From a virus (taxonomy: Duplodnaviria; Caudoviricetes), in IMG/VR virus record IMGVR_UViG_3300021197_001233, positions 218 to 64,217 of that record: DNA of 64,000 bases, one strand, 5' to 3'. This document shows, in pieces, positions 1-35,853 of this stretch (positions within the stretch are counted from its first letter, which is position 1; the number at the start of each line of letters is the position of its first letter). Both the position numbers and the translations under genes were made by a program. Below the pieces are notes generated by a model. It searched no databases and was not told the origin of the DNA. It saw only the letters and a program-made list of their open reading frames with translations.

Positions 1-337
1 ATGACTCGGTGGAGCCACTGCGGTTGGACATATCAATCTCGATGATGCGGAACACCTCGACCGAGCAGTCGTCGCCATTGTCTGCCACCCAGTCATCGTG
101 GGTCATGTCAGATGGGACACAGGCGGCGTAGTCCTCGTACTCACGGGTCATCGTGACCTCAGCGTCACCTCCGTCTTGATGTTCGATACATACACATATC
201 TCATCCTTTCGGTAGTCGTCGAGGACTTGCTTGATGTGTTTCTCTGCGAACCCCCGCTTGGGGAAGAACTCGCAGGTGGTGTCGGAGTACCCTTCGAAGA
301 GTCCTGCGACAGCGTGGATTACTGCATATTGTTTCAT
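1..337 (-). CDS. early hypothetical protein (runs off window edge)
   Basis: ATG at 337 (MKQYAVIHAVAG...), open to position 1; preceded by promoter 372-404 and the leader motif at 348-357. Confidence 0.7.
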   Translation of the reverse strand, partial: MKQYAVIHAVAGLFEGYSDTTCEFFPKRGFAEKHIKQVLDDYRKDEICVCIEHQDGGDAEVTMTREYEDYAACVPSDMTHDDWVADNGDDCSVEVFRIIEIDMSNRSGSTES

Positions 338-371
338 GGTTATTGAATTGAAGTTTGTAAAAGTCTCGACA

Positions 372-427
372 CAAAGATAAGGAATTGATGTGGACAATTC
401 CAAATTTTTGTTGAAAAGATTTGTTAA
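372..427 (-). promoter_or_regulatory. Bacteroidota-type early promoter (TTTG-N21-TATCTTTG) with DnaA-box-like TTGTCCACA in the spacer
   Basis: + strand caaagata 372-379, tgtggacaa 389-397, caaa 401-404; 400-427 nearly identical to 2324-2351. Confidence 0.75.
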
Positions 428-431
428 AGGC

Positions 432-593
432 TTGGTTAGAAGGGAGGTTGGGATTCGAACACAACCGCCGTCCGACACAAAGGTCTTGGGAGTGGACGTG
501 CGCACCGACTGCGCTCCCTTGAAGAAGGTGAGGGGGCGGACTGACGTTTCAGCCACGCATACCCCCTCGTTGGTCAAACTTCAAACTAACCAA
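432..593 (-). ncRNA. candidate structured RNA: anti-leader hairpin, GC hairpin and tRNA-like domain
   Basis: Ends can pair (UUGGUUAG/CUAACCAA); hairpin 570-593; hairpin 530-568 (GAGGGGG/CCCCCUC); tRNA-like 440-520 with AAGGGAG/CUCCCUU stem and GUUCGAAUC T-loop. Confidence 0.6.
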
Positions 594-795
594 TACCGCT
601 TACGATGTCCATCGCTTTGGTCATCGCATAAGTTCGCTGTTGCATCCCCGTCCCTGCAAGCTGTGGGGATGGCAAGTACACGAAGGTAGAAAATGTTTTG
701 TCATTCTCCAACCCTTCGATTGAATATCCTTTATCACCTCGCATAATGGCATCTGCCACGGCGTTGGTGTGGTAAATCTTTTCTTGAAGTGTCAT
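586..795 (-). CDS. early hypothetical protein
   Basis: 69-aa ORF, ATGA-coupled to upstream gene. Confidence 0.6.
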   Translation of the reverse strand: MTLQEKIYHTNAVADAIMRGDKGYSIEGLENDKTFSTFVYLPSPQLAGTGMQQRTYAMTKAMDIVSGIG

Positions 796-1226
796 GATGT
801 AAGTGCTTCAGTTTCAATAAGTTCCTGTTCAATGATTTGCCTCATGATGTGACTGATGATGCGGTCTATGATGTCTGCGCTATCGGCCCAGTTGCAGTAC
901 CCTTGCGTAGTTTTCAACCAACCCCTGAACTCCTTGTGCAGGTTGTGTGGTGTGTGGTCGCGCAGGTAGTCCACCATGTCCTCGTAGTAGGAGTCCATCT
1001 TGTACTCGTCGTAGTAGGACTCGTCGCTTTCATAAACCTCCTCTGCTCTCCACAGGTTGCAGAACCCGTTGTTGTAGTAGTCGTAGCCGATTCGAGAGAT
1101 AGCACGGAGGGCTTCGGGAAGTCCGTCATCTGCCTCACCTGACGTAGGGATGAGTTGCTTCCATGCGGCATCGTACTGCTCTTGATACTTGCCCTCCTTG
1201 TCCCAATATGTTCCTGTCTTACTCAT
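792..1226 (-). CDS. early hypothetical protein (acidic)
   Basis: 144-aa ORF with leader motif at 1239-1248. Confidence 0.75.
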   Translation of the reverse strand: MSKTGTYWDKEGKYQEQYDAAWKQLIPTSGEADDGLPEALRAISRIGYDYYNNGFCNLWRAEEVYESDESYYDEYKMDSYYEDMVDYLRDHTPHNLHKEFRGWLKTTQGYCNWADSADIIDRIISHIMRQIIEQELIETEALTS

Positions 1227-1362
1227 TCTCTTGTTGTTTTGAAGTTTGATATTCGTCGTGTGCTTGCTCGACCGCTTTGTTCAGCATCTCTGCCTCTGCT
1301 CGATCGATTGCCTGCCCTTGCATACGGGCAAGCTGAATGATTACGTCTACGATGTCAGTCAT
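1219..1362 (-). CDS. small early hypothetical protein (47 aa, not in ORF track)
   Basis: MTDIVDVIIQLARMQGQAIDRAEAEMLNKAVEQAHDEYQTSKQQENE*, fills the gap in the minus-strand operon. Confidence 0.5.
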   Translation of the reverse strand: MTDIVDVIIQLARMQGQAIDRAEAEMLNKAVEQAHDEYQTSKQQENE

Positions 1363-1417
1363 GGTTGTCTCTGCTTGTTGGTGTAATTTCCATGGTCACG
1401 TCCCATATTATATTGTG

Positions 1418-1615
1418 TCATGTCAATGGTGTATGTGATTCCCAAAAGTGGATTTCTTCGTCGTGGATGCGGAAGCTCGTAGCAAATTTTAGCTCGTCGT
1501 TCCACACGCTGTCCAACCACACGCCGTGGTCGTCACGTGCTCCCATCACATGGGAGGCCTCGAACCCTTCTTTTTGCAGTGCTTTGACTGCACGTTCGCA
1601 TTGTTCTTGTGTCAT
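1418..1615 (-). CDS. early hypothetical protein
   Basis: 65-aa ORF, ATGA-coupled. Confidence 0.65.
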   Translation of the reverse strand: MTQEQCERAVKALQKEGFEASHVMGARDDHGVWLDSVWNDELKFATSFRIHDEEIHFWESHTPLT

Positions 1616-1926
1616 AGGTCAATGATTACGCCCTTGTCTTTGAGGGCATTGATGATGTAGTCAGGGAGTTCGAAGCATCCGTCGTACCCCACGAGTCGCA
1701 CGCTTCCGTCGTCGTCGTGCTCCGTTTCGAGCACACCCTCTGCATAGAATCGGTCGCCACCTGTGTCTAGGTCGTAGGTCTCGTACCATCCACCATATCC
1801 GTGGTCTGGGTCGATAGACACCTCGGTGTCCATGTCAACATTCTTTGCGGCATCAACGTCTACGTCGTAGGCGGTGCGCATTGATACGAATGGGAGTGTG
1901 TGCTTGAAGCTGTGTGTGAATTTCAT
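1612..1926 (-). CDS. early hypothetical protein
   Basis: Likely start MKFTHSF at 1926 (A-rich leader) within the 1612-2148 ORF. Confidence 0.7.
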   Translation of the reverse strand: MKFTHSFKHTLPFVSMRTAYDVDVDAAKNVDMDTEVSIDPDHGYGGWYETYDLDTGGDRFYAEGVLETEHDDDGSVRLVGYDGCFELPDYIINALKDKGVIIDL

Positions 1927-2023
1927 TGTGCTTTTGTTTCGTAGTGGTTCAACGTTTCGATGAGCAGTAGTCGTATGCAGGAGAGCACCATGCTCCACCC
2001 TGCGTATATCTGGATGGCTGTCA

Positions 2024-2272
2024 TCATTTTTTATCAAGCTTGAAGATGAGGTTGTTCTCTGCGTCGTTAGCGTAGTCGTCAAGCAGGTTGATGACCTCCT
2101 GAACGTGGTCAGGGTCTGCGTATTTCGTGTCTGAGAGCAGGGAGGCAAAGCCCTTCACATCCTTGGGCACAAGTCTGGCCGCTCGGTTGAGCTTGTTCAG
2201 GTTCGCACCGAAGTGGAAGTCATTGAGGAAGAGGACTGCGCGTCCTACGGGTTGTCCAAAGAAGTTGTCCAT
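2024..2272 (-). CDS. early hypothetical protein
   Basis: 82-aa ORF, first gene after promoter 2297-2328. Confidence 0.7.
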   Translation of the reverse strand: MDNFFGQPVGRAVLFLNDFHFGANLNKLNRAARLVPKDVKGFASLLSDTKYADPDHVQEVINLLDDYANDAENNLIFKLDKK

Positions 2273-2296
2273 GGTATTGGGGTTTGAAGTTCGGTG

Positions 2297-2351
2297 TAAA
2301 GATACAGCAATTTGTGGATGAATCCAAATTTCTGTTGAAAAGATTTGTTAA
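2297..2351 (-). promoter_or_regulatory. early promoter (TTTG-N20-TATCTTTA) with DnaA-box-like TCATCCACA
   Basis: + strand taaagata 2297-2304, tgtggatga 2313-2321, caaa 2325-2328; shares upstream repeat with 400-427. Confidence 0.7.
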
Positions 2352-2354
2352 TGC

Positions 2355-2519
2355 TCAGTAATCACGGGTCGTGATGCCGAAGCTACGCAGGTCGATGTAC
2401 ACGTCCTCGTCCCATGCGTCCTCGATGAGGCGCAACGCCTCCCTGTCGTCTGTGTCAGCGAAGTGTTCGTACGCGAGGACCTTTTCGTCTGCGCACAATT
2501 CTCTGAATGGATTAAACAT
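2355..2519 (-). CDS. early hypothetical protein
   Basis: Likely start MFNPFREL at 2519, leader motif at 2524-2533. Confidence 0.6.
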   Translation of the reverse strand: MFNPFRELCADEKVLAYEHFADTDDREALRLIEDAWDEDVYIDLRSFGITTRDY

Positions 2520-2553
2520 TTGCTTGAAGTTTGATGGTGTAACTATCTGATAG

Positions 2554-2700
2554 TCAGGCCTTCCAGACCTCATCCAACATCCAACCTTTCGTGCGTTCGA
2601 TGTGCTTGATGAAGTTTGCAATGTGGCCTCCGTCCTCGAAGTCGCGGGTCATTGACCACTTCTTCCCGCAGGACATAATGAATTGAATGGTAACTCTCAT
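2554..2700 (-). CDS. early hypothetical protein
   Basis: Start MRVTIQF at 2700, ATGA-coupled to upstream ORF. Confidence 0.6.
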   Translation of the reverse strand: MRVTIQFIMSCGKKWSMTRDFEDGGHIANFIKHIERTKGWMLDEVWKA

Positions 2701-2801
2701 TGGTCTAGTGTGTTGAGGACATAGTCCACGAGGGCGACGAACCCGCACCCGCTTGCGAATACTACCGCGAGCGATACGAGCAGGACTACCGCCTCGCTCA
2801 T
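2697..2801 (-). CDS. 34-aa hydrophobic membrane peptide (not in ORF track)
   Basis: MSEAVVLLVSLAVVFASGCGFVALVDYVLNTLDQ*, ATGA overlaps at both ends. Confidence 0.55.
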   Translation of the reverse strand: MSEAVVLLVSLAVVFASGCGFVALVDYVLNTLDQ

Positions 2802-2920
2802 GACTGCTTGTCTTTGAGGTTTGACACTGCATCCATGGCCATGCCTGTGAGCATGATGATGCCGACTACGCCGATGCCCGCCGCGAGCATGAGGTTGATG
2901 TTAAAAAGTAACTGAACCAT
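2798..2920 (-). CDS. 40-aa hydrophobic membrane peptide (not in ORF track)
   Basis: MVQLLFNINLMLAAGIGVVGIIMLTGMAMDAVSNLKDKQS*; leader motif at 2930-2941. Confidence 0.6.
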   Translation of the reverse strand: MVQLLFNINLMLAAGIGVVGIIMLTGMAMDAVSNLKDKQS

Positions 2921-2940
2921 TGTGTATGGGTTTGAAGTTT

Positions 2941-2990
2941 GATACAGACCCCCGAAGGGGTTTCGTCCATTCAGGACTCGTCAGTGTACC
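2941..2990 (-). ncRNA. hammerhead ribozyme (type I)
   Basis: GGUACA-CUGACGA-GUCC(UGAAU)GGAC-GAA-ACCCC(UUCG)GGGGU-C-UGUAUC: complete core, three stems, GUC cleavage triplet (cut between 2947 and 2946). Confidence 0.92.
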
Positions 2991-2992
2991 TG

Positions 2993-3172
2993 TCAGATGG
3001 GGTCGAAGTACCTGCGAATCTCCTGCTCCGCACGCTCGTCCTCTGCATCGTCCGCACCGATGAGGTCGGCCAACGTCATGTGTGCGTCTGCGAAGTGGGT
3101 GGACACGATGTCCTGCACGATGGTGGTGAGGGCTTGTACGCGCCCCTCATGCGCTTGCTTGGAAGTAGCCAT
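2993..3172 (-). CDS. early hypothetical protein
   Basis: Likely start MATSKQAH at 3172, downstream of promoter and leader motif 3177-3186. Confidence 0.7.
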   Translation of the reverse strand: MATSKQAHEGRVQALTTIVQDIVSTHFADAHMTLADLIGADDAEDERAEQEIRRYFDPI

Positions 3173-3192
3173 GGTGTTGAAGTTTGATGGTC

Positions 3193-3236
3193 GCAAGATA
3201 CGACCGAATTGTGGATAAAACAAATCTCTTTGTTAA
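3193..3236 (-). promoter_or_regulatory. early promoter (TTTG-N20-TATCTTGC) with perfect DnaA box TTATCCACA
   Basis: + strand gcaagata 3193-3200, tgtggataa 3210-3218, caaa 3221-3224. Confidence 0.7.
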
Positions 3237-3255
3237 GTCGCTGTGAGTCAGGAAG

Positions 3256-3870
3256 TTACAAGACGTCCTCGGCAGTCACGCCTCCGTCCATCATGTCCAT
3301 GTTCACCGCACGCACCATGTCCATCACGTCCGTGTACCCCTCATCGCGCATTACCGCGTATGGTGTGGGTGGCGTGTAGTCTGCCGCGTGCTGTGGGCGG
3401 GGCTTGGGCGCAGGTGCGTCAACCTCCGTGCGTGTGCCGAATGGCGAGGCCTTGGTGGGCTTGTCGTCGCACACGACCTCGGTCTTGCGCACGTTCCGCT
3501 TGGCGCTCTCGCGGTTGCTCAGGCGTTGTGCCTGTGCCTCCAACTTGTCGTTCTTGGTCTTGCGCTTGGTCTTGCGCTTCGTGGGCTTGGGTGCGGGAGG
3601 CGTGGTGGCCTCCTGCACGTCCACGGGGGTGTACGTGTTCGCGCTCTGGCACGCATCCATGACATCGAACATTTGCTCCATCGTCATCCCGTACTGCTCG
3701 CACAGCACGTCCGCACGTGACTGCTTCGCAGTCTTGGCTTTGGCTTTGGCTTTGGGCTTGGCCGCTTGCTCCTGGGCGAACTTGGCTTTGTTCGCGGCAC
3801 GGCGCTCGGCTCGGGTCAACTTGCGCCCCGTGTCGGGGCAGTGTGTGGGGGTGTAGGTCTTTGCAGACAT
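3256..3870 (-). CDS. first early gene; basic, Lys/Ala/Pro-rich protein (possibly nucleic-acid binding)
   Basis: Likely start MSAKTYTP at 3870; KPKAKAKAK and KRKTKRKTK tracts; promoter TATCTTTG at 3921-3928; leader motif 3881-3892. Confidence 0.75.
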   Translation of the reverse strand: MSAKTYTPTHCPDTGRKLTRAERRAANKAKFAQEQAAKPKAKAKAKTAKQSRADVLCEQYGMTMEQMFDVMDACQSANTYTPVDVQEATTPPAPKPTKRKTKRKTKNDKLEAQAQRLSNRESAKRNVRKTEVVCDDKPTKASPFGTRTEVDAPAPKPRPQHAADYTPPTPYAVMRDEGYTDVMDMVRAVNMDMMDGGVTAEDVL

Positions 3871-3920
3871 GGTGTAAGAAGTTTGAAGTTTGCTCGGCCC
3901 GACTCTCGAACCGATGCCAA

Positions 3921-3952
3921 CAAAGATAGGTAAATCAATCCCTGATGTCAAG
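3921..3952 (-). promoter_or_regulatory. early promoter (TTGA...TATCTTTG)
   Basis: + strand caaagata 3921-3928 matches Bacteroidota -7 TAnnTTTG. Confidence 0.65.
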
Positions 3953-4610
3953 CCAACGGATGTTAACGTCAGCAATGACGGGGGATGCAGAGCCAAATTT
4001 ATACGAGGTTATGTCCATTGTGTCACCCCATGAGCGGGGATGATTGGTTGCAGTAAAGGTATAGGTGAGGTATTGTCCCACCTTCGGGTAGAGCTACATG
4101 TCTGCGGTCACCTGATGCGATGATGCAGGTAACGATGCGTAAGTGACTGGGGGACAAGCGATTGCAATCTCGGAAGTAAATCTCCGTAGTATGGCAGAAA
4201 CTAGGGAGGGGGGTTTGGAAATGTAATTTCCAAAAGATTTGCCTCCGTACATATATACATATAATCCCCCCTATGTGTGGTTCTGATCGTTTTTTACGAC
4301 CAAACCCGAAAAAACCGCCGATATCCGCAAAAATTTTCACGCGGTATTTTTTGATTGACTCCATCTAACCCCTCATAACTGACTGATTTAGAGTAAGAAG
4401 CGGTATTTAGCCTCTAGTATAGCTTGAGTCTTGACTTTTAAAGATTTCTGTTATAACTTTGCTATACAATCAAGTGCAAAACAGTCGAAATAGTAGGGTG
4501 TGTGTACACACATTACACCATCCGATCTAGATTTAACTGTTAAATACGGGATAGCTGTGCCATGTGGGGATATTACCGACTAATCGGTACAGGGGGACAG
4601 CATATTTGGG

Positions 4611-4618
4611 TATATTTG
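4611..4618 (+). promoter_or_regulatory. late promoter element TATATTTG (representative of about 12 copies)
   Basis: Copies at 4611, 4919, 6150, 11224, 13107, 15699, 18627, 19622, 24604, 26802, 53400; TAATTTTG at 37842; matches Bacteroidota -7 consensus. Confidence 0.8.
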
Positions 4619-4622
4619 CCTC

Positions 4623-4913
4623 ATGCTACTGATAAAGATCTCCGAGAGCGGTTATCGCAGAGACAGTGAGGACCAGTTCAACGACCACAATGTGATTATG
4701 ACGGGCTGCATCTCTATGGATGCGGTAGATTACCCCGTTGTAGGTATGGACGAGATAGGTAACATCAAGATTATGATGCCTGGGTCCAAGCACAACTTTG
4801 AAGGGGAGAGGGTACTGGAGGTACCGCTTAAGAATGACGAGTACAACTTCATGAGTCAGGACGACATCTATGAGCTTGTTCGCATTAAGGCTGCAGAAAC
4901 GGGTTTCTCTTAA
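4623..4913 (+). CDS. conserved Bacteroidota-phage hypothetical protein
   Basis: GYRRDS...ISMDAVDYPVVGMDEIG...MMPG...FEGERVLEVP resembles a domain I recall from crAss-like/flavobacterial phages. Confidence 0.7.
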   Translation: MLLIKISESGYRRDSEDQFNDHNVIMTGCISMDAVDYPVVGMDEIGNIKIMMPGSKHNFEGERVLEVPLKNDEYNFMSQDDIYELVRIKAAETGFS

Positions 4914-9280: not shown

Positions 9281-10089
9281 TGTTAGGCCTAGGATTAAGT
9301 TTAAACTCCTCTGTACAGGAGTCGTCCGTCTCCAGGCTTCCATCCTACTCTAATAGCCACAACATTTTTGTTGACGGAACAGAGGCCGTAGGTATCCTTG
9401 ACTCAACCGACATCACGAGTATCTTTGGAGGCAATTACACCTATTCGTTTTGGGTTTATGATACTGCTTATAATACTTCTTATGCTTGCGGAACCAAGAA
9501 GAGCACAACTCCTACTTATGAAATTGGCGTTCGATTCTTAAACCTTGGCGTTATGTATCTTCAAGTATTTCATGAGGCCGATGGCACAGGGGGTAGCGCT
9601 TTCTATAATGTCGGCTCATCCCTCACGAATTCGAATTGGCATCAGATTACCGTTACATGCACGGCGGGGGCAACGGGTTCTGACAACGCAACAATAAAGA
9701 CGTATCTCAATGGAAGCCTTGTGGGTACGAACACCAGTGGCCCAACGAAGGATAAGCAAGATGCTTTTGCTGCCACAAGTGGATCCCTGTTTGGGGTCGG
9801 GGCTAGATATAGTGACTTGAACTCCCCAACCTTCCACACAAGCTCTTACTTTGATGAGTTTGCATTCTGGAGCGCGGTCTTGGATGCCGATGCTGTTTCG
9901 GCTATATACAACAGTGGGGACTCCATAGACCTGTCTGTGGACAGTGGGGACTATGACCGTTCCTCTGACCTTGAAAGCTGGTATAGATTTAATAACGACT
10001 TTACCGACAGTCAAGGAAATTCAACTACAGGCACAGCTGTTGGAGATCCCCTTTTCGGTTCATCTGACAATCCACCAGGAACCCCATGA
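9280..10089 (+). CDS. LamG/concanavalin A-like domain virion protein
   Basis: Start MLGLGLSL at 9280; YTYSFWV, WHQITVT, TYLNG, FDEFAFWSAVL. Confidence 0.85.
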   Translation: MLGLGLSLNSSVQESSVSRLPSYSNSHNIFVDGTEAVGILDSTDITSIFGGNYTYSFWVYDTAYNTSYACGTKKSTTPTYEIGVRFLNLGVMYLQVFHEADGTGGSAFYNVGSSLTNSNWHQITVTCTAGATGSDNATIKTYLNGSLVGTNTSGPTKDKQDAFAATSGSLFGVGARYSDLNSPTFHTSSYFDEFAFWSAVLDADAVSAIYNSGDSIDLSVDSGDYDRSSDLESWYRFNNDFTDSQGNSTTGTAVGDPLFGSSDNPPGTP

Positions 10090-13379: not shown

Positions 13380-13453
13380 GCACCTGTAGCTCAACAGGAT
13401 AGAGCAGCGCACTTCTAATGCGCAGGTTTCAGGTTCGAGTCCTGACAGGTGTA
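13380..13453 (+). tRNA. tRNA-Arg(UCU)
   Basis: Canonical cloverleaf GCACCUG/CAGGUGU, GCGCA-CUUCUAA-UGCGC, GGUUCGAGUCC. Confidence 0.95.
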
Positions 13454-13466
13454 CAAATTAAATACA

Positions 13467-27611: not shown

Positions 27612-28495
27612 TGGCTATACCTAGAAACGGTCATAACAACGGTCACAATTACATCTCATTGAGAGAGGTTATTGCTGACTACATGCTCACCATGGACGAG
27701 GACGACTACGCCTCATCTGCGACAGAGTACGCCATAAGGAATATGGCCCTGCGTGGTATTAGAGAGTTTGGCTTTGATGTCCAGCCATCTGTTAGGTCTT
27801 TGAAAAGAACTTTGCAGTCCAATAACACAATTATCCTACCAGATGATTTTGTTGATGTGATTAAGATCGGCACCGTGGATGAGAACGGTATTGTTAGAGC
27901 CTTTGCCGAAAACAAAAACCTGAACATCTCTCAGGCATACAACACTGACGGGGATATTGTAAATCAAAGCCTACAGCTTGGACTTGACGATCATCGGAGC
28001 AAAGGCAATAGAAGGCCCATACCAGACAACAAACTTCAAAACAGAAAGGATGATCTGACTGCTACTAATTCAGAGGCCAATAACGAAGATATCGACTGGT
28101 ACATCTTTGAGAACTATCTGTATCAAGGAAGTCTTGGCAGAATGTATGGGTTAGGCGGTGGAAAGCTTAGAGGTACATACCGCATCAACTACGATCAGAA
28201 CAGAATTGAGATTGACTCTGAGGCTGGCGTAACAGAGGTCGTTATAGAGTACATCTCTGACTCGGCGAGGTCTACGGACCCTGTGGTTCACGTATACGCT
28301 GAGGAGGCTCTTAGGGCCTTCATATACTATAAGATTGTAGAGCGCAAGAGCTCTGTCCCAGCTGGAGAAAAGCAGCGGGCTAGACAGGAGTATTACAACG
28401 AGCGAAGAAAGGCTCGTGCTAGACTCAGCAACTTCTCGAAGACTGAGGCCATGAATGTAATTAGAAGAAACTTTAAGCTAGTACCCAAGTACTAA
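27611..28495 (+). CDS. tail ring/tubular protein
   Basis: RGIREFGFD...LPDDFVD...VIEYISD...VHVYAEEALRAFI. Confidence 0.7.
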   Translation: MAIPRNGHNNGHNYISLREVIADYMLTMDEDDYASSATEYAIRNMALRGIREFGFDVQPSVRSLKRTLQSNNTIILPDDFVDVIKIGTVDENGIVRAFAENKNLNISQAYNTDGDIVNQSLQLGLDDHRSKGNRRPIPDNKLQNRKDDLTATNSEANNEDIDWYIFENYLYQGSLGRMYGLGGGKLRGTYRINYDQNRIEIDSEAGVTEVVIEYISDSARSTDPVVHVYAEEALRAFIYYKIVERKSSVPAGEKQRARQEYYNERRKARARLSNFSKTEAMNVIRRNFKLVPKY

Positions 28496-31400
28496 TGATT
28501 GAAAAGAAAAGACCCAGGAAGCTCAACTCTTCGAAAGACTCAAGAGTGCGGGGCGCAGACGAGATGTACGATGCGCTGAATGTGCAGGTATCTTCTGATT
28601 ACGATGGCGCTGGATCTGATGCTGACGGAAACGCTGGAGGTAATGTTGGTGTTCTTAAGCCAGCATACGGGAACTCTGTAAATCAGTATTTTGAGCAGTT
28701 TTCTGAGCAGAGCTTTGAGCGTTCTAGCTCCCTGAAAGTTCTGGGTAATGTAGTGGACGACGAGAATGATGTCATTTACTATTTTGTATGGTCGTCTGTT
28801 CCTAAGGAGCAAGGTATCTACGCCTACGACCCAAAGGGATTCCTTCCCGACGTCTCAGGTAACAGCAACATGATTAAGGTGGTGTATAAGTCACCGCTTC
28901 TAAACTTCCCATCTGACGGTTTCGTGAAGGGGGACGTTGTTGTCATTCAGGATGAGGGCGATGAGAACCAAAAGGTTAAGCCCGTCATCTATTTTACCGA
29001 TGGAGTAAACGAGCCGAGAAGCATAAATGTTTTCCTTGCCTACAATAAGGTAAGGAACCGCATGACCCCTGGTGACGGAGGGGTTCAGTCTTCGAACACT
29101 TTCGCTGATGATCACTTCGATCAGCAGGACTTTATTCATGCGTGCCCCAAGACTCCAGTACACCCCCCTAAGGCTTTTTTTAGGAATGATCCTAACAGTA
29201 GGTCGTCAAATTTTGAGGGTATTTCTGGATATCAGTTCGCATATCAGTATATCTACAAGGGAGGTGAAGAGTCTGCCCTTTCTACCTACTCAGATATTAT
29301 CATACCACCAGCCTATCTACAGCAGGGGGCTAAATCATCTGCGAATCTTAGCCAGACGAATGAGTGCGTCATTAAGATCCCTAGAGGCTCTGTCAAGGAC
29401 CCTGCCAGTGTCGACGCCAACGGCTATCTCACTGGTAGTGTTATTGCTGATGCGACCTCAGCCAACTCTATCATAAATAGGTACTTGCCCCGTAACGTAG
29501 AGAAGATTCGTATCCTTGTCAGAGAGGGGAATAGGGGGGCATTTAGCGTAGTAGAAACCATTCCTTCTGGAGTTGACGACTTCGTAACAACTAGTGATGG
29601 TCAGGACCCCAGAGGGCTGTATACGGACCTTCAGTACATATTTAGAAACGATAGAGTAAAGACTGGATTCTCCAAGGACGAAGCCAATAAGCCGTTCGAT
29701 AGCGTACCTCAAGTTGCTGGCGCTCAGACAGTTGCGTCAAATAGGCTTATGTATGGGGACTATGTCACAGGCTACGACAACGTGGACGTATCAGCGTCTG
29801 CTACAATTACGTACAATTCTAGGCCAGAGGATTTTAAAAGCATTGACATCACTGTCCGCCCAACCATTGACCTCCTGGATCAGGATCTTAGCGTAAACAA
29901 CAGGAGATCTGGGATCTATTTTGACGTAGACAACTTCCCAGCCGATAATATCGGGCTATCTGACGACTCTACCGTTGACGTTACAATAACCGTAAGGCCT
30001 AAGAGGAACTGGCACATATACAACGCCAATAACTCGTTCCACGGGTCTAGACATATTGGAAACCTAAGCCCAAACGTCATTGAGGATAACAACACTCAAA
30101 ATCCAGGCAACCCATCGACGACCATTCAGCCTTATCAGGTCTCTCCCAACCTTGCAAGCGACGGGGTAGACGGTGTGGATGGCGTAACTGGTGAGCCTGG
30201 TACTTTTGGGTCAAGTAGGTCAAGAACAAACTTAAGCTCAAACCATAGCCTTGATACAATTTGGGGGGCCAATAATGGGGTTACTTTGGGCCCCTCTAAC
30301 CCCAAGTGGAAGACGGTGGCGTCTCAGCACGATGTAGACCCAAATGAAGACGGCACTCTTAGTACCTCGACAATCATCTCTGGATCTAACTCTGAGGTTC
30401 CTGTCAGATACGGTACATCAGCCGCTAACCCTTTTATCCTTAGGGGAAGACCGCTTCTTTTTAGCGTAAGCATTAAGTTGAAGTCCAACATAAGCGGAAG
30501 TAACTACAAGAAGCTGCTTAGAGACTTTATATCAAGGGCGATGACGTGGGACAGGGATGCGGTAGACGCTAACGGAGACCCCCTGTACCCGAGAGAGGTG
30601 CAGTTTAATGGTACGTTTTATGATTCAAATGGAGTGTCCCCGTACTTCGAGATCCTTGATATCAAGAACGATTACTCCTACACAATCGACGAAGGACTGG
30701 ACGGGGGCAACGCCAATAGCACAATAGAGGACGTAACTGGTGGCGCAAATAAGATCAACGTAACCACAAAGGGGGACGATAGAAAGCATTTGATTGTTGC
30801 TGTCGGAAATGGCAATATCGTAAAGGAGGGGGCGAACCCTGCCGACCTGCGCTACTTGCCACCGTGTGGCTACTTTATAGTGAATAGAGCCACCCCCACC
30901 TTTAGGCTTACGTCTCGCGACGATATTGACCCTACAGCGACGTATGGGGTCCTTCAGCTAGACCTAAGGTCTCTTAACGATGTAGAGACTCTTACCTGTG
31001 TCCCATTCGTTGATGCTGACCTGTGGGAGGATAAGGGCATGAAGCTCAGGAATGTTCCCGAGGCGGGAAGTGGATTTGGAACCATTTTTAACCCAGGAAA
31101 TGCGGAGGAGATTGCTCAAGGTCAATCTAACCAACCAAGGGGTCCTGAGGGCACGGTATATTGGTGGAACTCTGGCATATTTAACTCTGGCAGATTTAGC
31201 GACCCTGACAACTGGGGGCTGAGGGATGTTACTGTGTGGCAGTTTCAGACAATGGTGATCGACTCGTGGTGGTGCTTCTCCAAGGAGTACCTGGTGAGAA
31301 AGCCGATTCCAGAGTTCTTGTTTACACCGCTATACTCCGACTATAAGAGAATATCAAATGGTTTTACTAGTGCCACAGAAGCGACGGCGGCGGACATTGA

Positions 31401-34400
31401 AGGGGTCAGTGCTGGCGATGCCGTGGGCGCCCCAGGAGATCTTAGCGTTGACACCACAAATAACGGGGTACTTAGAAACGCTGCTGTAGTAAAGCAGGGT
31501 CATATCGAAAAGCTTGTCCACGAGAACCAGCTTGGCGTGGGAGGGGATGAGATGAGCACTGGAGGGTTTGGCGATGGTGTAGATTCCCCAGAGCTTCTTG
31601 GATTTTTGCACTTTAGGCACAATATGCGCCTTCGCGTAGGAGGTGATGGTTTTTACCCAGCCATTCAAAATACGGACCTTGGCGCGTATACTGGTGAAGG
31701 AGGAGCCCATTATGGTTTGTTGGGTCTAAAAAATAAGTACGATAAAACAAGAGCAAGGATTGTAGGGTGGATTGACAGCGGTCTGGGATATATCGGAGAC
31801 AACTCTGCAAACATATACAACACAGGCGGCGTCAATCAGCCCACCAACAACCCTGATCGCTGGAATAGTGGATTTACAATCCTTGACGGTGCGGGAGGTA
31901 TTGGTGGAAACCCCACGGGTGGCGAGGCCATGCTTAGATATGACGCGGGTAAGTCCTGCGCCATGGGCACTGTCAATGGGATGATGCTGTTTACGGGGTA
32001 CATAGGACCTAGAGACACGGTACTCCCCTCTAAGATTAAGGACGGGACAAAGCCCCCATTTGATCTTGATGCCCCTACACTGATTTTTTATAACGATAGA
32101 TTTAGCAACTACTTCAATAAGTTCGGTCAGGACAGCATGATGGCGTTCCTTGGGCAGTTCAACTATACGTCCCTGAGCAATGCAGGCGGGTTTACCTGGG
32201 CGCCAGGCGGCATATTCCCCAACCCTCTTACGAAATCACTGTACTATACCTCGCCGCTTGATTTAGGGCTCGGGGACCAGGGGCAAAACATTCTTGACGA
32301 GGACAACTTTCAAAACCATGATTGGAGGGATGATTATAGGGATCAGGTCGTGCGCAATCAGCCCGTCGTTGAGATTCTTGATGTAGGTGGTGGTACTGTC
32401 CTTGCCGACGAAATACGGTCTGGAGGCAGGTCCTTTAAGACTAAGGCCAATCATTCCTTTGGCATTGTGTTCTATGATGAGAGAGGTCGTGCTGGCCGCG
32501 TCAATCCGATAAAGATAGACGGGAGCAGTTCCCTGTTTGTAGAGGGGTATGACGGAAGGGACAGTGACGAATTGGCTGGTAGGGTGTCTATCAAGCTCAA
32601 GCTTGACGACGTGGTGGAGAGGGTCCCCGACTGGGCCCGTCATTATCAGATCGTATATGCTGGCAACTCCACGTACTCAAACTTTATTCAGTACTCTGCA
32701 GGGGGCGCCTTTGTTGGCACCTTCAACGAGGGGGAGGCTGAGCAGGATAGTCAAAACATATATGTGTCTTTGAACTACCTGCAGGGAAACAAGGATGTGT
32801 CGTATACCGAATCGTTCGGTGCTGTATCTCCATCTGGCACTAAGCAGATGTATGTCCACAGCCCAGGCGATAAGCTCAGGGTTATATCATACTTTGTGTC
32901 AAACCCGATTGATGAGAATGGAGACATCACTGGGAGGGTGTACCCTAGAGACTATGAGTTTGAAATAGTAGGTGTTGAAAATCTTTCAGGCAACCCAGAG
33001 ATCAACCCTCTCCGCAGAACGTTCACCGACTCCTCTGACTCCGCAGTTATGTCTGACGCGAAGACTGGTCAGTTCCTTGTCCTCAAGAATAACCCTTTTG
33101 CGGCTGGATTCTCGTATGACGATGTAAAGAATGGTGAGAATGACCCATCGTCGAACAAGCACTTCTGGAACAGTATCTGCGTAGTTGAGATATACTCGCC
33201 ATCTCAAGAGGTTGCGGATGAAGAGCAGAGGCTGTACTACGAGATTGGCCAGGTGTATGACATCGGCATCTCTGACGGGAATGTTGTAAGCGGCTCTGAC
33301 GGGGCCACAGTAATGGATTCTGGTAGGCCATACTACAAGACTAACCCTGTGCTTCTTGAGAAGGGGGACGTATGGTTTAGGCGAGTGCCTATGGCGGTGC
33401 CTAAGTTTGATACCGATCCAGACTCTGAGACGTTTGGTAGGTTTAGGAACTTGATTACATACGATAAGGATAACGAGGTGGGCAGCACCCCAAGGTTCCA
33501 GAACTATTTCCTTGAGACAGAGGCGTTTAACGACACCTTCTCTGGGAATGATGTACTGTCTAGAGGTAAGCCAAACATCATAGACGACGAGTTCGGCAGA
33601 AGCAGAAAGAAGGGGTCTATCGCGTTCTCCGATAAGCACGTATACGATAAGTCCAAGCTTCGCTTCTCTTCATTTAAGGAGAACAGCTTCAAGGACTTCC
33701 CTTCTGAGCACGGACCAATTCGGTACTTGATGGACAATTACGATTCTATCGTGATGATTCAAGAGAGAAAGACCAGTGCCATTCCAGTTGAAAGATCTAT
33801 TCTCAGCACCGCCGACGGGTCAAATAGCCTCGTACAGAGCAAGGAGCCGCTCGGTGTTCAGAGCTTCTACGCTGGCGACTACGGGTGCGACAAAAACCCA
33901 GAGTCGGTAATCAGGGCTGGGGGCGCGATATACTTTGCATCGCCCAAGTCCGCCGAGGTATACCGCCTCTCTATTGGCGGCGGCATCGAGGTCATCTCAT
34001 CTATCGGTCTTAAGTCAGAGTTCTACAAGACGTTTAGATATGTAAATAGCTCTGCTGGCGCTAACGAAAGAGTTTACGTACCAACGGGTTATGACCCAGT
34101 AAATGACGAGTTCCTTATCACCATTAGAAAGGAGTCGTTTACAGCCCCTTCGGGACCTGTTGAGACCCAGGGAGTCATAGGCCCTGTGGCTGAGGACACA
34201 AATGATGATGTGTTTGGGGGTGTAGATGAAGTTATCTCAGGTTGCACATACATTGCCTCTCCTAACTTCAACCCTTTTGCTCTTGAGGATGATGGGAACT
34301 GCTTCGTTTTAGGTTGTACTGACCCCATATCTCTTAACTACACGCAATCTCCGCAGTTGGGGGTTGAGGTTATATTATGTGATTCTGGCTCGACCACCTT

Positions 34401-35853
34401 GGTGGGAAAAGAGTATTATAACAATCCGTTTGATTGTGCCTGCAGATACTTTAACCCGTGCATCTTTGACGCATTCTCTTTGTTGCCTGACGGCAAGGTT
34501 AATTACAGCGACGTAAATGAGTTCCTTGGTCTGCTAAGTAACTCAACGTTTACTGTGCCAGATATTCCAAATGAGTATTTCCCAAATAATGCTCAGCAGC
34601 TGTTTGCCACTGGGGTTATAAACAACTTAGGCCTTGACTTTATGTGGACTGCAGGCTTGGCCGTTCAGCCACCAGCGTCTCTTGCTGGTCAGCCGTCTAC
34701 ATCGTGGAACTTTTCAAATGACACATTTGACAGTGTGGCATATAGATTCGCTGTCGCGGCGTACACTGAAGGTCCATCTGCTGCAGAGATGCAGGATTAC
34801 TACAGCAACTCTGGAGATCCAGCGTATACAGGCAGTATTGAAGAAATTTGGGCTCAATCTCCAGACGTTGAGTGGATGGACACTTACTGGAGAGACGTCA
34901 ATGAAGACGTACCTATCTGGCAGGCATCATGGCACCAGGCCAACCACGTCACACTTAGCGGAGGTGACGATCTTTCTACCTTTAACGGGGCTCCAGAGGG
35001 TTGCGTGTACATTGGATGTACCGACAATGTGGTGCCTGCCCTGAACTACGACCCTCTTGCGGACGCTAACAACCCCTGCGGGCAATCCGTCGTCGGCCCT
35101 GGAAATGATTTATTTAGGACCCCGACAGATGAAAACGGAAATTGCCCAGACGGGCTATCTGAGTGTTGTGAGCCTGGTGAATGCTACACTCCATTTGAGT
35201 GTCTTGAATGTGGGAACCCATGTTTAGATACTCCCGTGTTCCATACGTTCCCTTGCGCGGACAACCCTGTGAGTCCGCTTATGGGCTATACTAATGTCAA
35301 TCCAAATGATGATACCTATGGATTGGGTAGCTTTATAACGAGTGAGCTTGGTTCATTCCCTAACGCAGATTATACATTTACGCAGGACGCTAGCAACCCA
35401 GCGGGCATGCCTGTCGGCTCTCTGTTCGCCACAAGTCAGGCCGCCCTACAGGAGCTTAGAGACCTTGTGAGCATGCACTACCAGCAGTATCAGACCAACT
35501 GCGTGTCAGATGCGACGCAGTTTGTTGGGACTTACTACACTGAGAATGTACCATGTGACGACACCTACAACCCGCCGCCGACTGCTCCGATTGATTACTA
35601 CTACTGGATTGACTGCTGTCAATACAAGTGCCAGGGTAACTATCCAACGAACGCAAGCGGGGCTATGGACAACACGGGTAACGCTGATGACTCTCTTAGA
35701 ACTGAAGATTTTGTGCTTCCTCTGGGTGGTGGTACGGGTATTCCTCCATGCTACAATGGCGACTATCCATCTACAGACTATAGCGTGGGGGATCTAAACC
35801 CAGACTTTGACTACAATCCTAACGTAAGCGGTAATCAGCCACAGGACGACTAA
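28495..35853 (+). CDS. large tail nozzle/muzzle-like protein, N-terminal part, with Cys-rich extension
   Basis: YDALNV, IYFTDG.NEPRSIN, YQFAYQY.Y..GEESALS, NRLMYGDY, KTKANHSFGIVFYDERGR, YGCDKNPES, GYDPVNDEF. Confidence 0.75.
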   Translation: MIEKKRPRKLNSSKDSRVRGADEMYDALNVQVSSDYDGAGSDADGNAGGNVGVLKPAYGNSVNQYFEQFSEQSFERSSSLKVLGNVVDDENDVIYYFVWSSVPKEQGIYAYDPKGFLPDVSGNSNMIKVVYKSPLLNFPSDGFVKGDVVVIQDEGDENQKVKPVIYFTDGVNEPRSINVFLAYNKVRNRMTPGDGGVQSSNTFADDHFDQQDFIHACPKTPVHPPKAFFRNDPNSRSSNFEGISGYQFAYQYIYKGGEESALSTYSDIIIPPAYLQQGAKSSANLSQTNECVIKIPRGSVKDPASVDANGYLTGSVIADATSANSIINRYLPRNVEKIRILVREGNRGAFSVVETIPSGVDDFVTTSDGQDPRGLYTDLQYIFRNDRVKTGFSKDEANKPFDSVPQVAGAQTVASNRLMYGDYVTGYDNVDVSASATITYNSRPEDFKSIDITVRPTIDLLDQDLSVNNRRSGIYFDVDNFPADNIGLSDDSTVDVTITVRPKRNWHIYNANNSFHGSRHIGNLSPNVIEDNNTQNPGNPSTTIQPYQVSPNLASDGVDGVDGVTGEPGTFGSSRSRTNLSSNHSLDTIWGANNGVTLGPSNPKWKTVASQHDVDPNEDGTLSTSTIISGSNSEVPVRYGTSAANPFILRGRPLLFSVSIKLKSNISGSNYKKLLRDFISRAMTWDRDAVDANGDPLYPREVQFNGTFYDSNGVSPYFEILDIKNDYSYTIDEGLDGGNANSTIEDVTGGANKINVTTKGDDRKHLIVAVGNGNIVKEGANPADLRYLPPCGYFIVNRATPTFRLTSRDDIDPTATYGVLQLDLRSLNDVETLTCVPFVDADLWEDKGMKLRNVPEAGSGFGTIFNPGNAEEIAQGQSNQPRGPEGTVYWWNSGIFNSGRFSDPDNWGLRDVTVWQFQTMVIDSWWCFSKEYLVRKPIPEFLFTPLYSDYKRISNGFTSATEATAADIEGVSAGDAVGAPGDLSVDTTNNGVLRNAAVVKQGHIEKLVHENQLGVGGDEMSTGGFGDGVDSPELLGFLHFRHNMRLRVGGDGFYPAIQNTDLGAYTGEGGAHYGLLGLKNKYDKTRARIVGWIDSGLGYIGDNSANIYNTGGVNQPTNNPDRWNSGFTILDGAGGIGGNPTGGEAMLRYDAGKSCAMGTVNGMMLFTGYIGPRDTVLPSKIKDGTKPPFDLDAPTLIFYNDRFSNYFNKFGQDSMMAFLGQFNYTSLSNAGGFTWAPGGIFPNPLTKSLYYTSPLDLGLGDQGQNILDEDNFQNHDWRDDYRDQVVRNQPVVEILDVGGGTVLADEIRSGGRSFKTKANHSFGIVFYDERGRAGRVNPIKIDGSSSLFVEGYDGRDSDELAGRVSIKLKLDDVVERVPDWARHYQIVYAGNSTYSNFIQYSAGGAFVGTFNEGEAEQDSQNIYVSLNYLQGNKDVSYTESFGAVSPSGTKQMYVHSPGDKLRVISYFVSNPIDENGDITGRVYPRDYEFEIVGVENLSGNPEINPLRRTFTDSSDSAVMSDAKTGQFLVLKNNPFAAGFSYDDVKNGENDPSSNKHFWNSICVVEIYSPSQEVADEEQRLYYEIGQVYDIGISDGNVVSGSDGATVMDSGRPYYKTNPVLLEKGDVWFRRVPMAVPKFDTDPDSETFGRFRNLITYDKDNEVGSTPRFQNYFLETEAFNDTFSGNDVLSRGKPNIIDDEFGRSRKKGSIAFSDKHVYDKSKLRFSSFKENSFKDFPSEHGPIRYLMDNYDSIVMIQERKTSAIPVERSILSTADGSNSLVQSKEPLGVQSFYAGDYGCDKNPESVIRAGGAIYFASPKSAEVYRLSIGGGIEVISSIGLKSEFYKTFRYVNSSAGANERVYVPTGYDPVNDEFLITIRKESFTAPSGPVETQGVIGPVAEDTNDDVFGGVDEVISGCTYIASPNFNPFALEDDGNCFVLGCTDPISLNYTQSPQLGVEVILCDSGSTTLVGKEYYNNPFDCACRYFNPCIFDAFSLLPDGKVNYSDVNEFLGLLSNSTFTVPDIPNEYFPNNAQQLFATGVINNLGLDFMWTAGLAVQPPASLAGQPSTSWNFSNDTFDSVAYRFAVAAYTEGPSAAEMQDYYSNSGDPAYTGSIEEIWAQSPDVEWMDTYWRDVNEDVPIWQASWHQANHVTLSGGDDLSTFNGAPEGCVYIGCTDNVVPALNYDPLADANNPCGQSVVGPGNDLFRTPTDENGNCPDGLSECCEPGECYTPFECLECGNPCLDTPVFHTFPCADNPVSPLMGYTNVNPNDDTYGLGSFITSELGSFPNADYTFTQDASNPAGMPVGSLFATSQAALQELRDLVSMHYQQYQTNCVSDATQFVGTYYTENVPCDDTYNPPPTAPIDYYYWIDCCQYKCQGNYPTNASGAMDNTGNADDSLRTEDFVLPLGGGTGIPPCYNGDYPSTDYSVGDLNPDFDYNPNVSGNQPQDD

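Follow-up and report, generated by a model that had tools for sequence, protein, structure and literature searches.

Phage translation can be controlled by proteins and by antisense RNAs. The T4 protein RegA is a translational repressor that brings about a global shut-off of many early mRNAs through a loose A/U-rich element. At the RNA level, the c4 antisense RNA of phages P1 and P7 is cut from a longer transcript by host RNase P (PMC5320573, citing Citron & Schuster 1990 and Hartmann et al. 1995); its loops pair at and near the ribosome-binding region of a phage mRNA, differences of a few bases set the specificity between related phages, and P1/P7 heteroimmunity is determined by c4 RNA (PMC5320573). 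Here, we analyzed a 64,000-nucleotide (nt) stretch of DNA (hereafter, the window), which comes from an IMG/VR virus record with a length of 64,217 bases and a rating as complete (IMGVR_UViG_3300021197_001233) and is nearly the entire genome of an uncultured marine phage whose host probably belongs to the Flavobacteriia. Close to its start, an early minus-strand operon appears to encode a 155-nt non-coding RNA (439–593) with a hairpin that carries the inverted copy of a leader motif found ahead of early start codons. We consider it moderately probable that the target of this antisense RNA is an 11-nt leader common to early mRNAs, whose translation would most likely be shut off by the pairing.

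In its logic, the locus is closest to c4 among the known systems: as there, the ribosome-binding region of phage mRNA contains a site complementary to a loop, with a specificity that co-varies among related phages. Unlike c4, which acts on one operon (ant) with two loops and in lysogenic immunity, the RNA described here has one loop facing up to 7–9 separate early-gene leaders and carries a full tRNA-like domain, and a scan of positions 380–640 with Rfam at E-values up to 10 returned no family, the C4 covariance model included. With RegA, the locus has in common a shared element in the translation-initiation regions of many early mRNAs, yet the proposed repressor would be an RNA that reads an exact 11-mer by base pairing. 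We found no description of this RNA or of its leader in the literature, supplementary files aside. A sequence-only reading of the window had stated that it knew of no described system with this architecture; c4 has to be counted as a conceptual relative. Antisense control of phage translation is already known, and the RNA family carrying it here is without an Rfam match.

Eight copies of the 10-mer TTGAAGTTTG are present in the window against 0.22 expected, a count reached by none of 100 shuffles. Plus-strand copies start at 348, 1239, 2524, 2932, 3177, and 3883, and minus-strand matches lie at 575–584 and 28030. All six plus-strand copies read CAAACTTCAA in the minus-strand mRNA and sit 4–12 nt ahead of an ATG: 348–357, 10 nt before the ATG at 337 of an open reading frame (ORF) of at least 112 amino acids (aa) that runs off the window start; 1239–1248, 12 nt before the ATG at 1226 of a 144-aa ORF (792–1226) and overlapping the 3′ end of the preceding ORF; 2524–2533, 4 nt before the ATG at 2519 (54 aa); 2932–2941, 11 nt before the ATG at 2920 (40 aa); 3177–3186, 4 nt before the ATG at 3172 (59 aa); and 3883–3892, 12 nt before the ATG at 3870 of a 204-aa ORF (3256–3870). 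A variant leader, TTGAAGTTCG/CGAACUUCAA (2284–2293, minus strand), precedes the ATG at 2272 of an 82-aa ORF by 11 nt, and its changed base could pair G-U with the loop. The seven early starts listed by the sequence-only reading were hence recovered as six exact copies plus this variant, and its suggested count against a shuffled background came out in favor of the motif. Missing from that list was a possible degenerate leader of uncertain status, CAAACCUCAA (2814–2823, minus strand), with one mismatch and 12 nt before the ATG at 2801, which opens a hydrophobic 34-aa ORF. The exact copy at 28030–28039 lies inside a late plus-strand ORF of 294 aa, in sense orientation and with no start codon following. 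As the counterpart near 27 kilobases (kb) in relatives does not follow the leader variant of its lineage, this copy is probably a coding coincidence, unrelated to the leader system.

The inverted copy reads GUUUGAAGUUUGA in the minus-strand RNA (574–586), the exact complement of the 2932–2941 leader with its flanks (2930–2942), which makes 13 nt of perfect complementarity. It forms part of hairpin 1, the anti-leader hairpin (570–593, minus strand), with the stem UUGGUUAG/UUGACCAA and the loop UUUGAAGU, which folds on its own at −7.0 kcal/mol. The earlier claims of a 13-nt perfect complement and of a hairpin that has its core in the loop were confirmed. Loop and 3′ stem strand are complementary to the leaders. 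Conservation of this complementarity extends over 11 nt and no further: at 184 of 201 sites (92%), the leader is preceded by a U, the counterpart of the A after UUUG in the hairpin. Since the three stem pairs beside the loop are weak (A-U, G-U, and U-G), pairing initiated in the loop can spread to 10–13 base pairs (bp). Across relatives, the hairpin 1 helix is paired in 99.4% of alignment cells, and each of its seven pairs is changed on both sides in at least one sequence.

Relatives were collected by way of the neighboring 144-aa protein (25 loci) and of exact patterns for the tRNA-like domain (31 viral and at least 110 metagenome loci); two further patterns added seven more true copies amid many chance matches. 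Among the matches listed, at least 127 loci carry the full element, representing at least 80 distinct sequences of 100–363 nt from marine viral and metagenomic contigs. Judged from record names, all element-bearing assemblies are marine or aquatic.

Within this family, the loop and the leaders change together from phage to phage. At 106 loci (620 kb) with the reference loop TTGAAGTTTG, we counted 336 leaders of the form CAAACTTCAA, ten CAAACTTCAC, and one CAAACATCAA. The five loci with the loop GTGAAGTTTG have 13 CAAACTTCAC leaders and none of the reference form, and the six with TTGATGTTTG have ten CAAACATCAA leaders, again without a reference copy. Three loci have lost one U from the loop (TTGAAGTTG), and five of their leaders have lost one A (TCAACTTCAA), next to two reference leaders. 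Finally, at two loci with the loop TCGAAGTTTG we found one exact UCAAACUUCGA, 4 nt before an ATG, where by our own arithmetic about 0.005 copies would be expected by chance in its locus. Each of the four loop variants, of which three are substitutions and one is a 1-nt deletion, is thus accompanied by matching leaders, and the variant leaders sit ahead of real ORFs. For a single gene, whose product begins MKQYAV, the ortholog's leader takes the reference, the TTGATG-matching, or the deletion-matching form according to the hairpin of its own genome. Two clearly distinct element backgrounds, which differ in hairpin-1 stem, hairpin 2, and variable arm, carry the TTGATG loop, arguing that the loop switches were independent; a set of 57 sequences of a conserved downstream protein contains three from loop-changed lineages, with two loop variants unrepresented. 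In each of five complete relatives, the leader of the own lineage is clustered over 3–7 kb in one orientation, with a single inverted copy, in the hairpin. Co-variation of leader and loop in relatives had been set beforehand as a test of the proposal, and this co-evolution is now shown.

Leader and hairpin also occur together. Eleven of the 25 protein-found relatives have two or more leaders, and ten of these carry the inverted copy in the same hairpin with the same tRNA-like domain, as the sequence-only reading would have it; the sequence of the eleventh ends 4 nt past the protein match. None of the 14 relatives with zero or one leader has the inverted copy, and the covariance model gave no match in those loci, nor in the full records of five of them (completeness of at least 95% in three), which hold zero or one copy of the motif. 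Twenty further loci (116 kb) possess the tRNA-like domain without the hairpin and contain about nine motif-family copies, at most two per locus, arguing that the multi-copy leader goes with the hairpin rather than with the tRNA-like domain. At 109 loci (617 kb, redundant set), 332 copies are sense and 110 antisense, 109 of the latter being the hairpin itself, so that 332 sense copies face one antisense copy outside the hairpin. The non-redundant set comprises 227 leader sites, of which 202 have an ATG within 0–15 nt that opens an ORF of at least 30 aa, with modes of the gap at 10–12 nt (159 sites) and 4 nt (15 sites). Most leaders are intercistronic; some are contained in the end of the ORF before them, and overlap with a promoter was never seen. 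Of 268 leader-like sites, 17 have a host-type promoter in the 75 nt upstream and 251 do not; where there is one, its −7 box is followed 3–30 nt later by the motif, which therefore lies in the transcript.

These patterns bear on the possibility that the leader is simply a regulatory cassette, a module of translation or recombination copied before early genes, without pairing in trans and with the hairpin serving as a terminator or processing site. Promoter-early stem-loops occur as repeated cassettes in T4-type phages, plastic early regions typically contain small ORFs preceded by repeated cassettes, and the promoters here likewise share extended sequence. A cassette would, however, account neither for a hairpin loop that changes in step with the leaders in four variants nor for the restriction of multi-copy leaders to genomes with the hairpin, and hairpin 1 is not followed by the U-run of a terminator. 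We regard this explanation as very improbable.

The structured element as a whole (439–593, minus strand) matched the covariance model at 142.8 bits, in agreement with the earlier claim of a structured element of about 160 nt with a tRNA-like domain. Its architecture is constant in the family: hairpin 1, hairpin 2, a pyrimidine-rich linker, and the tRNA-like domain. Hairpin 2 (530–568, minus strand) consists of an outer stem of a G-run and a C-run, an inner stem, and the almost invariant cap UGAAACGUCA; its helix is 98.3% paired, all six pairs show both-side changes somewhere, and one outer-stem pair is GC in 26, AU in 16, and GU in seven sequences. The linker ACCUUCUUC (521–529, minus strand) abuts the tRNA-like domain (439–520, minus strand), which is built from a 7-bp acceptor stem (AAGGGAG/CUCCCUU), a D-type stem (CGCA/UGCG) with a GG loop, and a T arm with the loop UUCGAAU; a single C extends past the acceptor stem, and no CCA is encoded. 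The anticodon arm is replaced by a hairpin that varies in size between a 4-bp stem closed by a tetraloop and more than 60 nt and has no conserved loop. All 50 aligned copies keep the acceptor stem, the T loop, and the D loop (AGUCGGU), and T-stem covariation is seen in six rows of a second subtype (UA to AU and UA to GC). The covariance model was built from 50 copies, and 93 matches to it were aligned for the pair statistics. Pairing holds in 94.5% of the cells, and both-side changes are seen at 31 of 42 pairs; none of 500 shuffles reached these values, while slid-partner controls gave 39–52% paired cells. RNAalifold recovered the acceptor, D, variable, and T helices as well as the outer stem of hairpin 2.

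Two alternative folds fared less well. The sequence-only reading had noted that UUGGUUAG can also pair with CUAACCAA at 432–439. This helix is present in the window and in three of the 78 distinct relatives whose sequence continues far enough downstream; it is specific to the window's close kin, and a closing helix acting as a switch is hence no feature of the family. Pairing of the loop with UCAA of the linker, as in the minimum-energy fold, was dropped, as the linker does not follow the loop variants in the alignment, judged by eye. At 439–450, the 3′ strand of the acceptor stem is rich in pyrimidines and faces a purine-rich partner, a pairing with a possibly coincidental likeness to an anti-Shine-Dalgarno/Shine-Dalgarno duplex.

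The tRNA-like domain shares with canonical tRNAs and transfer-messenger RNA (tmRNA) the 7-bp acceptor stem, the T loop UUCGAAU, and the GG of the D loop, and differs from them in lacking an anticodon loop, an acceptor-D spacer, and a tag frame and in having a conserved mismatch within its 6-bp T stem. Neither Rfam (at the gathering score) nor ARAGORN called a known RNA family or a tRNA at the element in the window and 10–12 relatives, although the window's true tRNA-Arg (13380–13454) was detected as a positive control. A canonical tRNA was ruled out on these grounds and by the lack of a 7-nt anticodon loop on a 5-bp stem, as was a tmRNA, with no ARAGORN or Rfam call and a contiguous tRNA-like part. 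The exact T-arm/acceptor pattern had no match in the genomes of 185,579 prokaryote species, and the element is therefore not an attP-type fragment of a host tRNA gene. By sequence, the domain appears to have the features of a tRNA-elbow mimic, namely an acceptor/T stack, the T-loop consensus, and a GG-containing D loop. Having an intact acceptor/T stack and elbow motifs yet lacking an anticodon loop, it is best read as a putative substrate of tRNA-end processing that would free and stabilize the upstream RNA, with a predicted RNase P cleavage site at the 3′ edge of the linker (520/521). There is precedent for such an arrangement: in MALAT1/mascRNA, a tRNA-shaped element provides the cleavage site of a processing enzyme and defines the end of the neighboring RNA. 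The t-elements of plant mitochondria are likewise described as tRNA-like processing signals (PMC1920247). Those examples are eukaryotic or organellar, whereas processing is here a prediction and the domain also occurs without the hairpin. Hairpin 1 was never without the tRNA-like domain among matches to the element patterns; as the domain is also found alone and behind different upstream modules, it may have a function of its own.

From this, we infer an RNA that acts in trans, represses rather than activates, and is processed at its tRNA-like domain. In the proposed sequence of events, the RNA would be excised from the early transcript, with the 3′ tRNA-like domain stabilizing it and acting as a signal for RNase P and tRNA processing. 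Hairpin 1 would display, by its loop and the weak top of its stem, 11 nt complementary to the private leader UCAAACUUCAA, which lies 4–12 nt upstream of the start codons of what would be seven or eight early genes. Pairing would start between loop and unstructured leader, and the duplex would then extend into the stem (about 10–13 bp), block the initiation region, and cause early-protein synthesis to fall once the RNA has built up—a delayed negative feedback. The predicted energies are compatible with such an exchange, at 0.0 kcal/mol for the leaders, −7.0 kcal/mol for hairpin 1 alone, and −15.9 to −18.9 kcal/mol for the hetero-duplexes. The duplex would span about −22 to −12, or −14 to −5 with the 4-nt spacing, a region to which the 30S subunit must bind. 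When all start regions of the window were ranked by duplex energy with the element, G+C-rich spurious ORFs came out on top, accessibility being ignored in this ranking. A delayed repressor would suit the genetic layout, as the RNA gene has 177 of the 227 leader sites upstream of it and the remaining 50 downstream. The ORF directly upstream of the element in the window (69 aa) has its stop codon (UAG, 586–588) in the 5′ arm of hairpin 1. In relatives the upstream ORFs differ and all end in the hairpin 5′ arm, with a UGA within the loop as the stop in most lineages, arguing that the RNA module dictates where these ORFs end. Given that the stop lies in the loop or 5′ arm, ribosomes finishing the upstream ORF may cover the anti-leader up to the release of the RNA. 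Early mRNAs of a super-infecting phage bearing the same leader would be silenced by this RNA as well, which we propose as the reason why lineages diverged into distinct leader/loop pairs; by analogy with c4, this divergence suggests a second role in the exclusion of like phages. The earlier idea of a phage small RNA matching many early initiation regions at once is therefore supported at the level of loop/leader co-evolution, with its mechanism proposed.

Several points weigh against this reading. It does not explain the two gap modes (4 and 10–12 nt), and in the lineage with the loop TCGAAGTTTG a single leader was found. G-U wobble did not discriminate between recognition of RNA and of DNA: one-mismatch leader sites are compatible with wobble pairing more often than sites elsewhere (16 of 42 versus 3 of 36), yet most of the 16 have their mismatch at the terminal position, and among internal mismatches 5 of 17 are compatible, about the random expectation. 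The alignment behind the pair counts was fitted to the structure and includes a few rows that are secondary, paralogous matches, and the T arm and part of the acceptor stem served as search anchor, which makes them invariant by construction. In four marine metatranscriptome runs from one study, we found identical, low-depth contigs scattered over 1–4000, including 507–666 and 309–500; these cannot show transcription, strand, or ends, and the latter two have the same depth as the rest of the early region and possibly stem from DNA. Last, a single recognition protein would also give rise to co-varying direct and inverted copies.

This last point is the starting point for an explanation at the level of DNA, in which the 10-mer is the site of a phage DNA-binding protein or the promoter of a phage RNA polymerase and the hairpin is incidental. 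The phage has crAss-type features (the C-terminal domain of the muzzle protein and a BT4734-like primase). In the crAss-like Cellulophaga phage phi14:2, early genes are transcribed by an injected polymerase, and early transcripts lack a common upstream motif (bioRxiv 10.1101/2020.03.07.982082). The first of these statements fits a DNA-level site, whereas the second speaks against it, as does the orientation bias of 332 to 1 outside the hairpin. Furthermore, the inverted copy always sits in the loop of a hairpin with compensatory stem changes, itself part of a conserved structured RNA; one variant consists of a 1-nt deletion with a counterpart in the leaders, a kind of change that a protein site would tolerate poorly; and sites are mostly intercistronic, sometimes within coding sequence and never overlapping a promoter. 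We also considered a virion or phage RNA polymerase as the reader of the motif and discarded it, since the giant proteins of the phage have neither a DFDxD motif nor a match to a polymerase of solved structure or to a Pfam polymerase family. Overall, we deem recognition at the DNA level improbable.

A different challenge accepts the pairing and inverts its sign: the RNA would activate or protect early mRNAs, for instance by shielding leaders from a nuclease or, alternatively, by letting its tRNA-like or hairpin-2 domain tether them to host ribosomes that make little use of Shine-Dalgarno sequences. Bacteroidota largely dispense with Shine-Dalgarno pairing, and the leader, with its gaps of 4 and 10–12 nt, holds the place of a ribosome-binding element. 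In addition, every hairpin found is fused to a tRNA-like domain that also occurs alone, and which might hence be the effector rather than an end-cap. Conversely, an RNA gene downstream of 177 of its 227 target sites is a poor layout for a needed translation factor, and two spacings fit a fixed docking geometry badly. Late genes, which make the greatest demands on translation, lack the leader, and related phages manage without the whole system. Activation is thus unlikely in our view.

Repression might also be achieved by cleavage, with the RNA serving as a natural external guide: the helix of leader and hairpin 1 (11–12 bp) plus a CCA-type tail would mimic the acceptor/T-stem stack of a pre-tRNA, host RNase P would cleave the early message at the leader's 5′ edge, shortly before the start codon, and the attached tRNA-like domain would bring RNase P to the RNA. 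RNase P prefers a U at −1 and an RCCA tail. Of 79 distinct elements, 76 have ACCA after the antisense stretch (GCCA, ACCT, and GCCT occur once each), CC is found in all 79, and the two G-C pairs that hold this CC never flip (GC in 87 and 89 of about 90 rows) whereas their neighbors do. The CC is equally well explained by the need for a strong base of the hairpin stem, and in the free RNA the CCA is internal and paired. Likewise, the U that precedes 184 of 201 leaders would provide the preferred −1 base, but an eleventh base pair with A accounts for it equally well. The length of the duplex equals the 12-bp acceptor/T stack, and the element is joined to a tRNA-like substrate of RNase P type; on the other hand, the first leader position, next to the would-be cut, is the least conserved one, with 18 of the 42 one-mismatch sites falling there. 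We know of no natural trans guide for bacterial RNase P. Synthetic external guide sequences combine an antisense stretch with an ACCA-type tail, pair near the mRNA start, and work (PMC5108630). They are designed, free-ended oligonucleotides, whereas the ACCA here is held within a stem and cleavage is hypothetical. We rate guided cleavage as quite unlikely; if true, it would represent a programmable, phage-encoded RNase P shut-off of mRNAs, with lineage codes that would also act as determinants of exclusion among lytic marine phages. Against these alternatives, we keep translational repression by the anti-leader RNA as the preferred reading.

The family contains several unusual members. Between one and three additional RNAs, each having a T arm and ends like those of an acceptor stem, come after the element in many relatives (at about 4604–4745 in locus L009, 2790–3080 in L011, and 4700–4790 in L014, for instance); one of them is about 135 nt long and ends in a T arm of the GGTTCGACTCC type. 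ARAGORN and Rfam made no call on these RNAs, which look like an array of tRNA-like RNAs; the window has the first element only. On a 9,750-nt contig (L040/L189), the element is present at both ends in inverted orientation (90–227, minus strand; 9524–9661, plus strand), either by inverted terminal duplication or as an assembly artefact. Hairpin 2 is missing from L223 (95–222), where hairpin 1 is fused straight to the tRNA-like domain. In L034, L036, and L060, hairpin 2 and the tRNA-like domain are set apart by about 150 nt of additional structured sequence, a module that also precedes the hairpin-less tRNA-like domains of L037, L172, and L212.

Our assignment of the first 3,900 nt of the window to the early region of a marine Flavobacteriia phage—'early' being read from the layout—is based on primase-helicase relatives, small minus-strand ORFs, and promoter sites. 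The primase-helicase matched 43 phage records, 34 of which are from phages of Flavobacterium, Cellulophaga, Nonlabens, Maribacter, or Tenacibaculum, with Maribacter phage Panino as the best match (35% identity). Small minus-strand ORFs fill the block 1–3900 behind three TTTG-spacer-TAnnTTTG sites, a consensus which we take to be the Bacteroidota promoter type, and a fourth promoter-like site (3923–3951). A regular-expression scan placed the three sites on the minus strand at 372–404, directly after the structured element, and at 2297–2328 and 3193–3224. The leaders at 348–357, 2284–2293, and 3177–3186 begin 14, 3, and 6 nt past the respective −7 boxes, and the fourth site lies upstream of the leader at 3883–3892. 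The spacer of the promoter following the element contains a perfect 7-bp inverted repeat (GGAATTG...CAATTCC, 381–401). Two early promoters have about 25 nt of upstream sequence in common (405–430 and 2329–2352; AACAAATCTTTTCAACA.AAATTTGGA), and ATCCACAA is common to the spacers of three. The inverted repeat and the common promoter sequence might form the operator of a DNA-binding regulator, distinct from the leader motif. The 204-aa early protein contains a lysine/alanine-rich repeat (AKPKAKAKAK..., encoded at 3700–3800), and this DNA draws very deep contigs of 29–31 nt (depth up to 260) in the RNA libraries, which probably come from other organisms.

From about 4.6 to 50.8 kb, genes are on the plus strand and include giant ORFs of 2,452 aa (28495–35853) and 3,001 aa (41834–50839). 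The former product is without a Pfam or solved-structure match, and the latter has LPD38 at residues 2691–2876 and a weak deacetylase-like stretch. Pfam domains in the window comprise this LPD38, the crAss muzzle-protein C-terminal domain (in a 657-aa ORF at 35863–37836), a BT4734-like primase/DnaB helicase, a PDDEXK-like protein, and a glucosaminidase. No sign of lysogeny was seen, with no in-depth look made. Among 50,697 phage records, a blastn search with positions 1–4500 gave no match. The RNA model had no match in the Cellulophaga phages phi14:2 and phi38:1 and hit nothing but the ordinary tRNA cluster in Maribacter phage Panino. Two abundant and stable early non-coding RNAs have been described from phi14:2, another marine Flavobacteriia phage (bioRxiv 10.1101/2020.03.07.982082); as its genome does not match our model, any relation would be no more than thematic.

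Antisense control of single genes is known in phages; here, if our reading is true, a whole early regulon would be marked by a private leader tag and governed by one small RNA. The setting is that of lytic-looking phages of Flavobacteriia, hosts in which translation initiation and RNA regulation are poorly understood. With a regulatory hairpin joined to a tRNA-like domain, the RNA family would link the timing of phage gene expression to the tRNA-processing machinery of the host. Its natural variants amount to ready-made orthogonal leader/loop pairs, which could serve as programmable translation switches for Bacteroidota.

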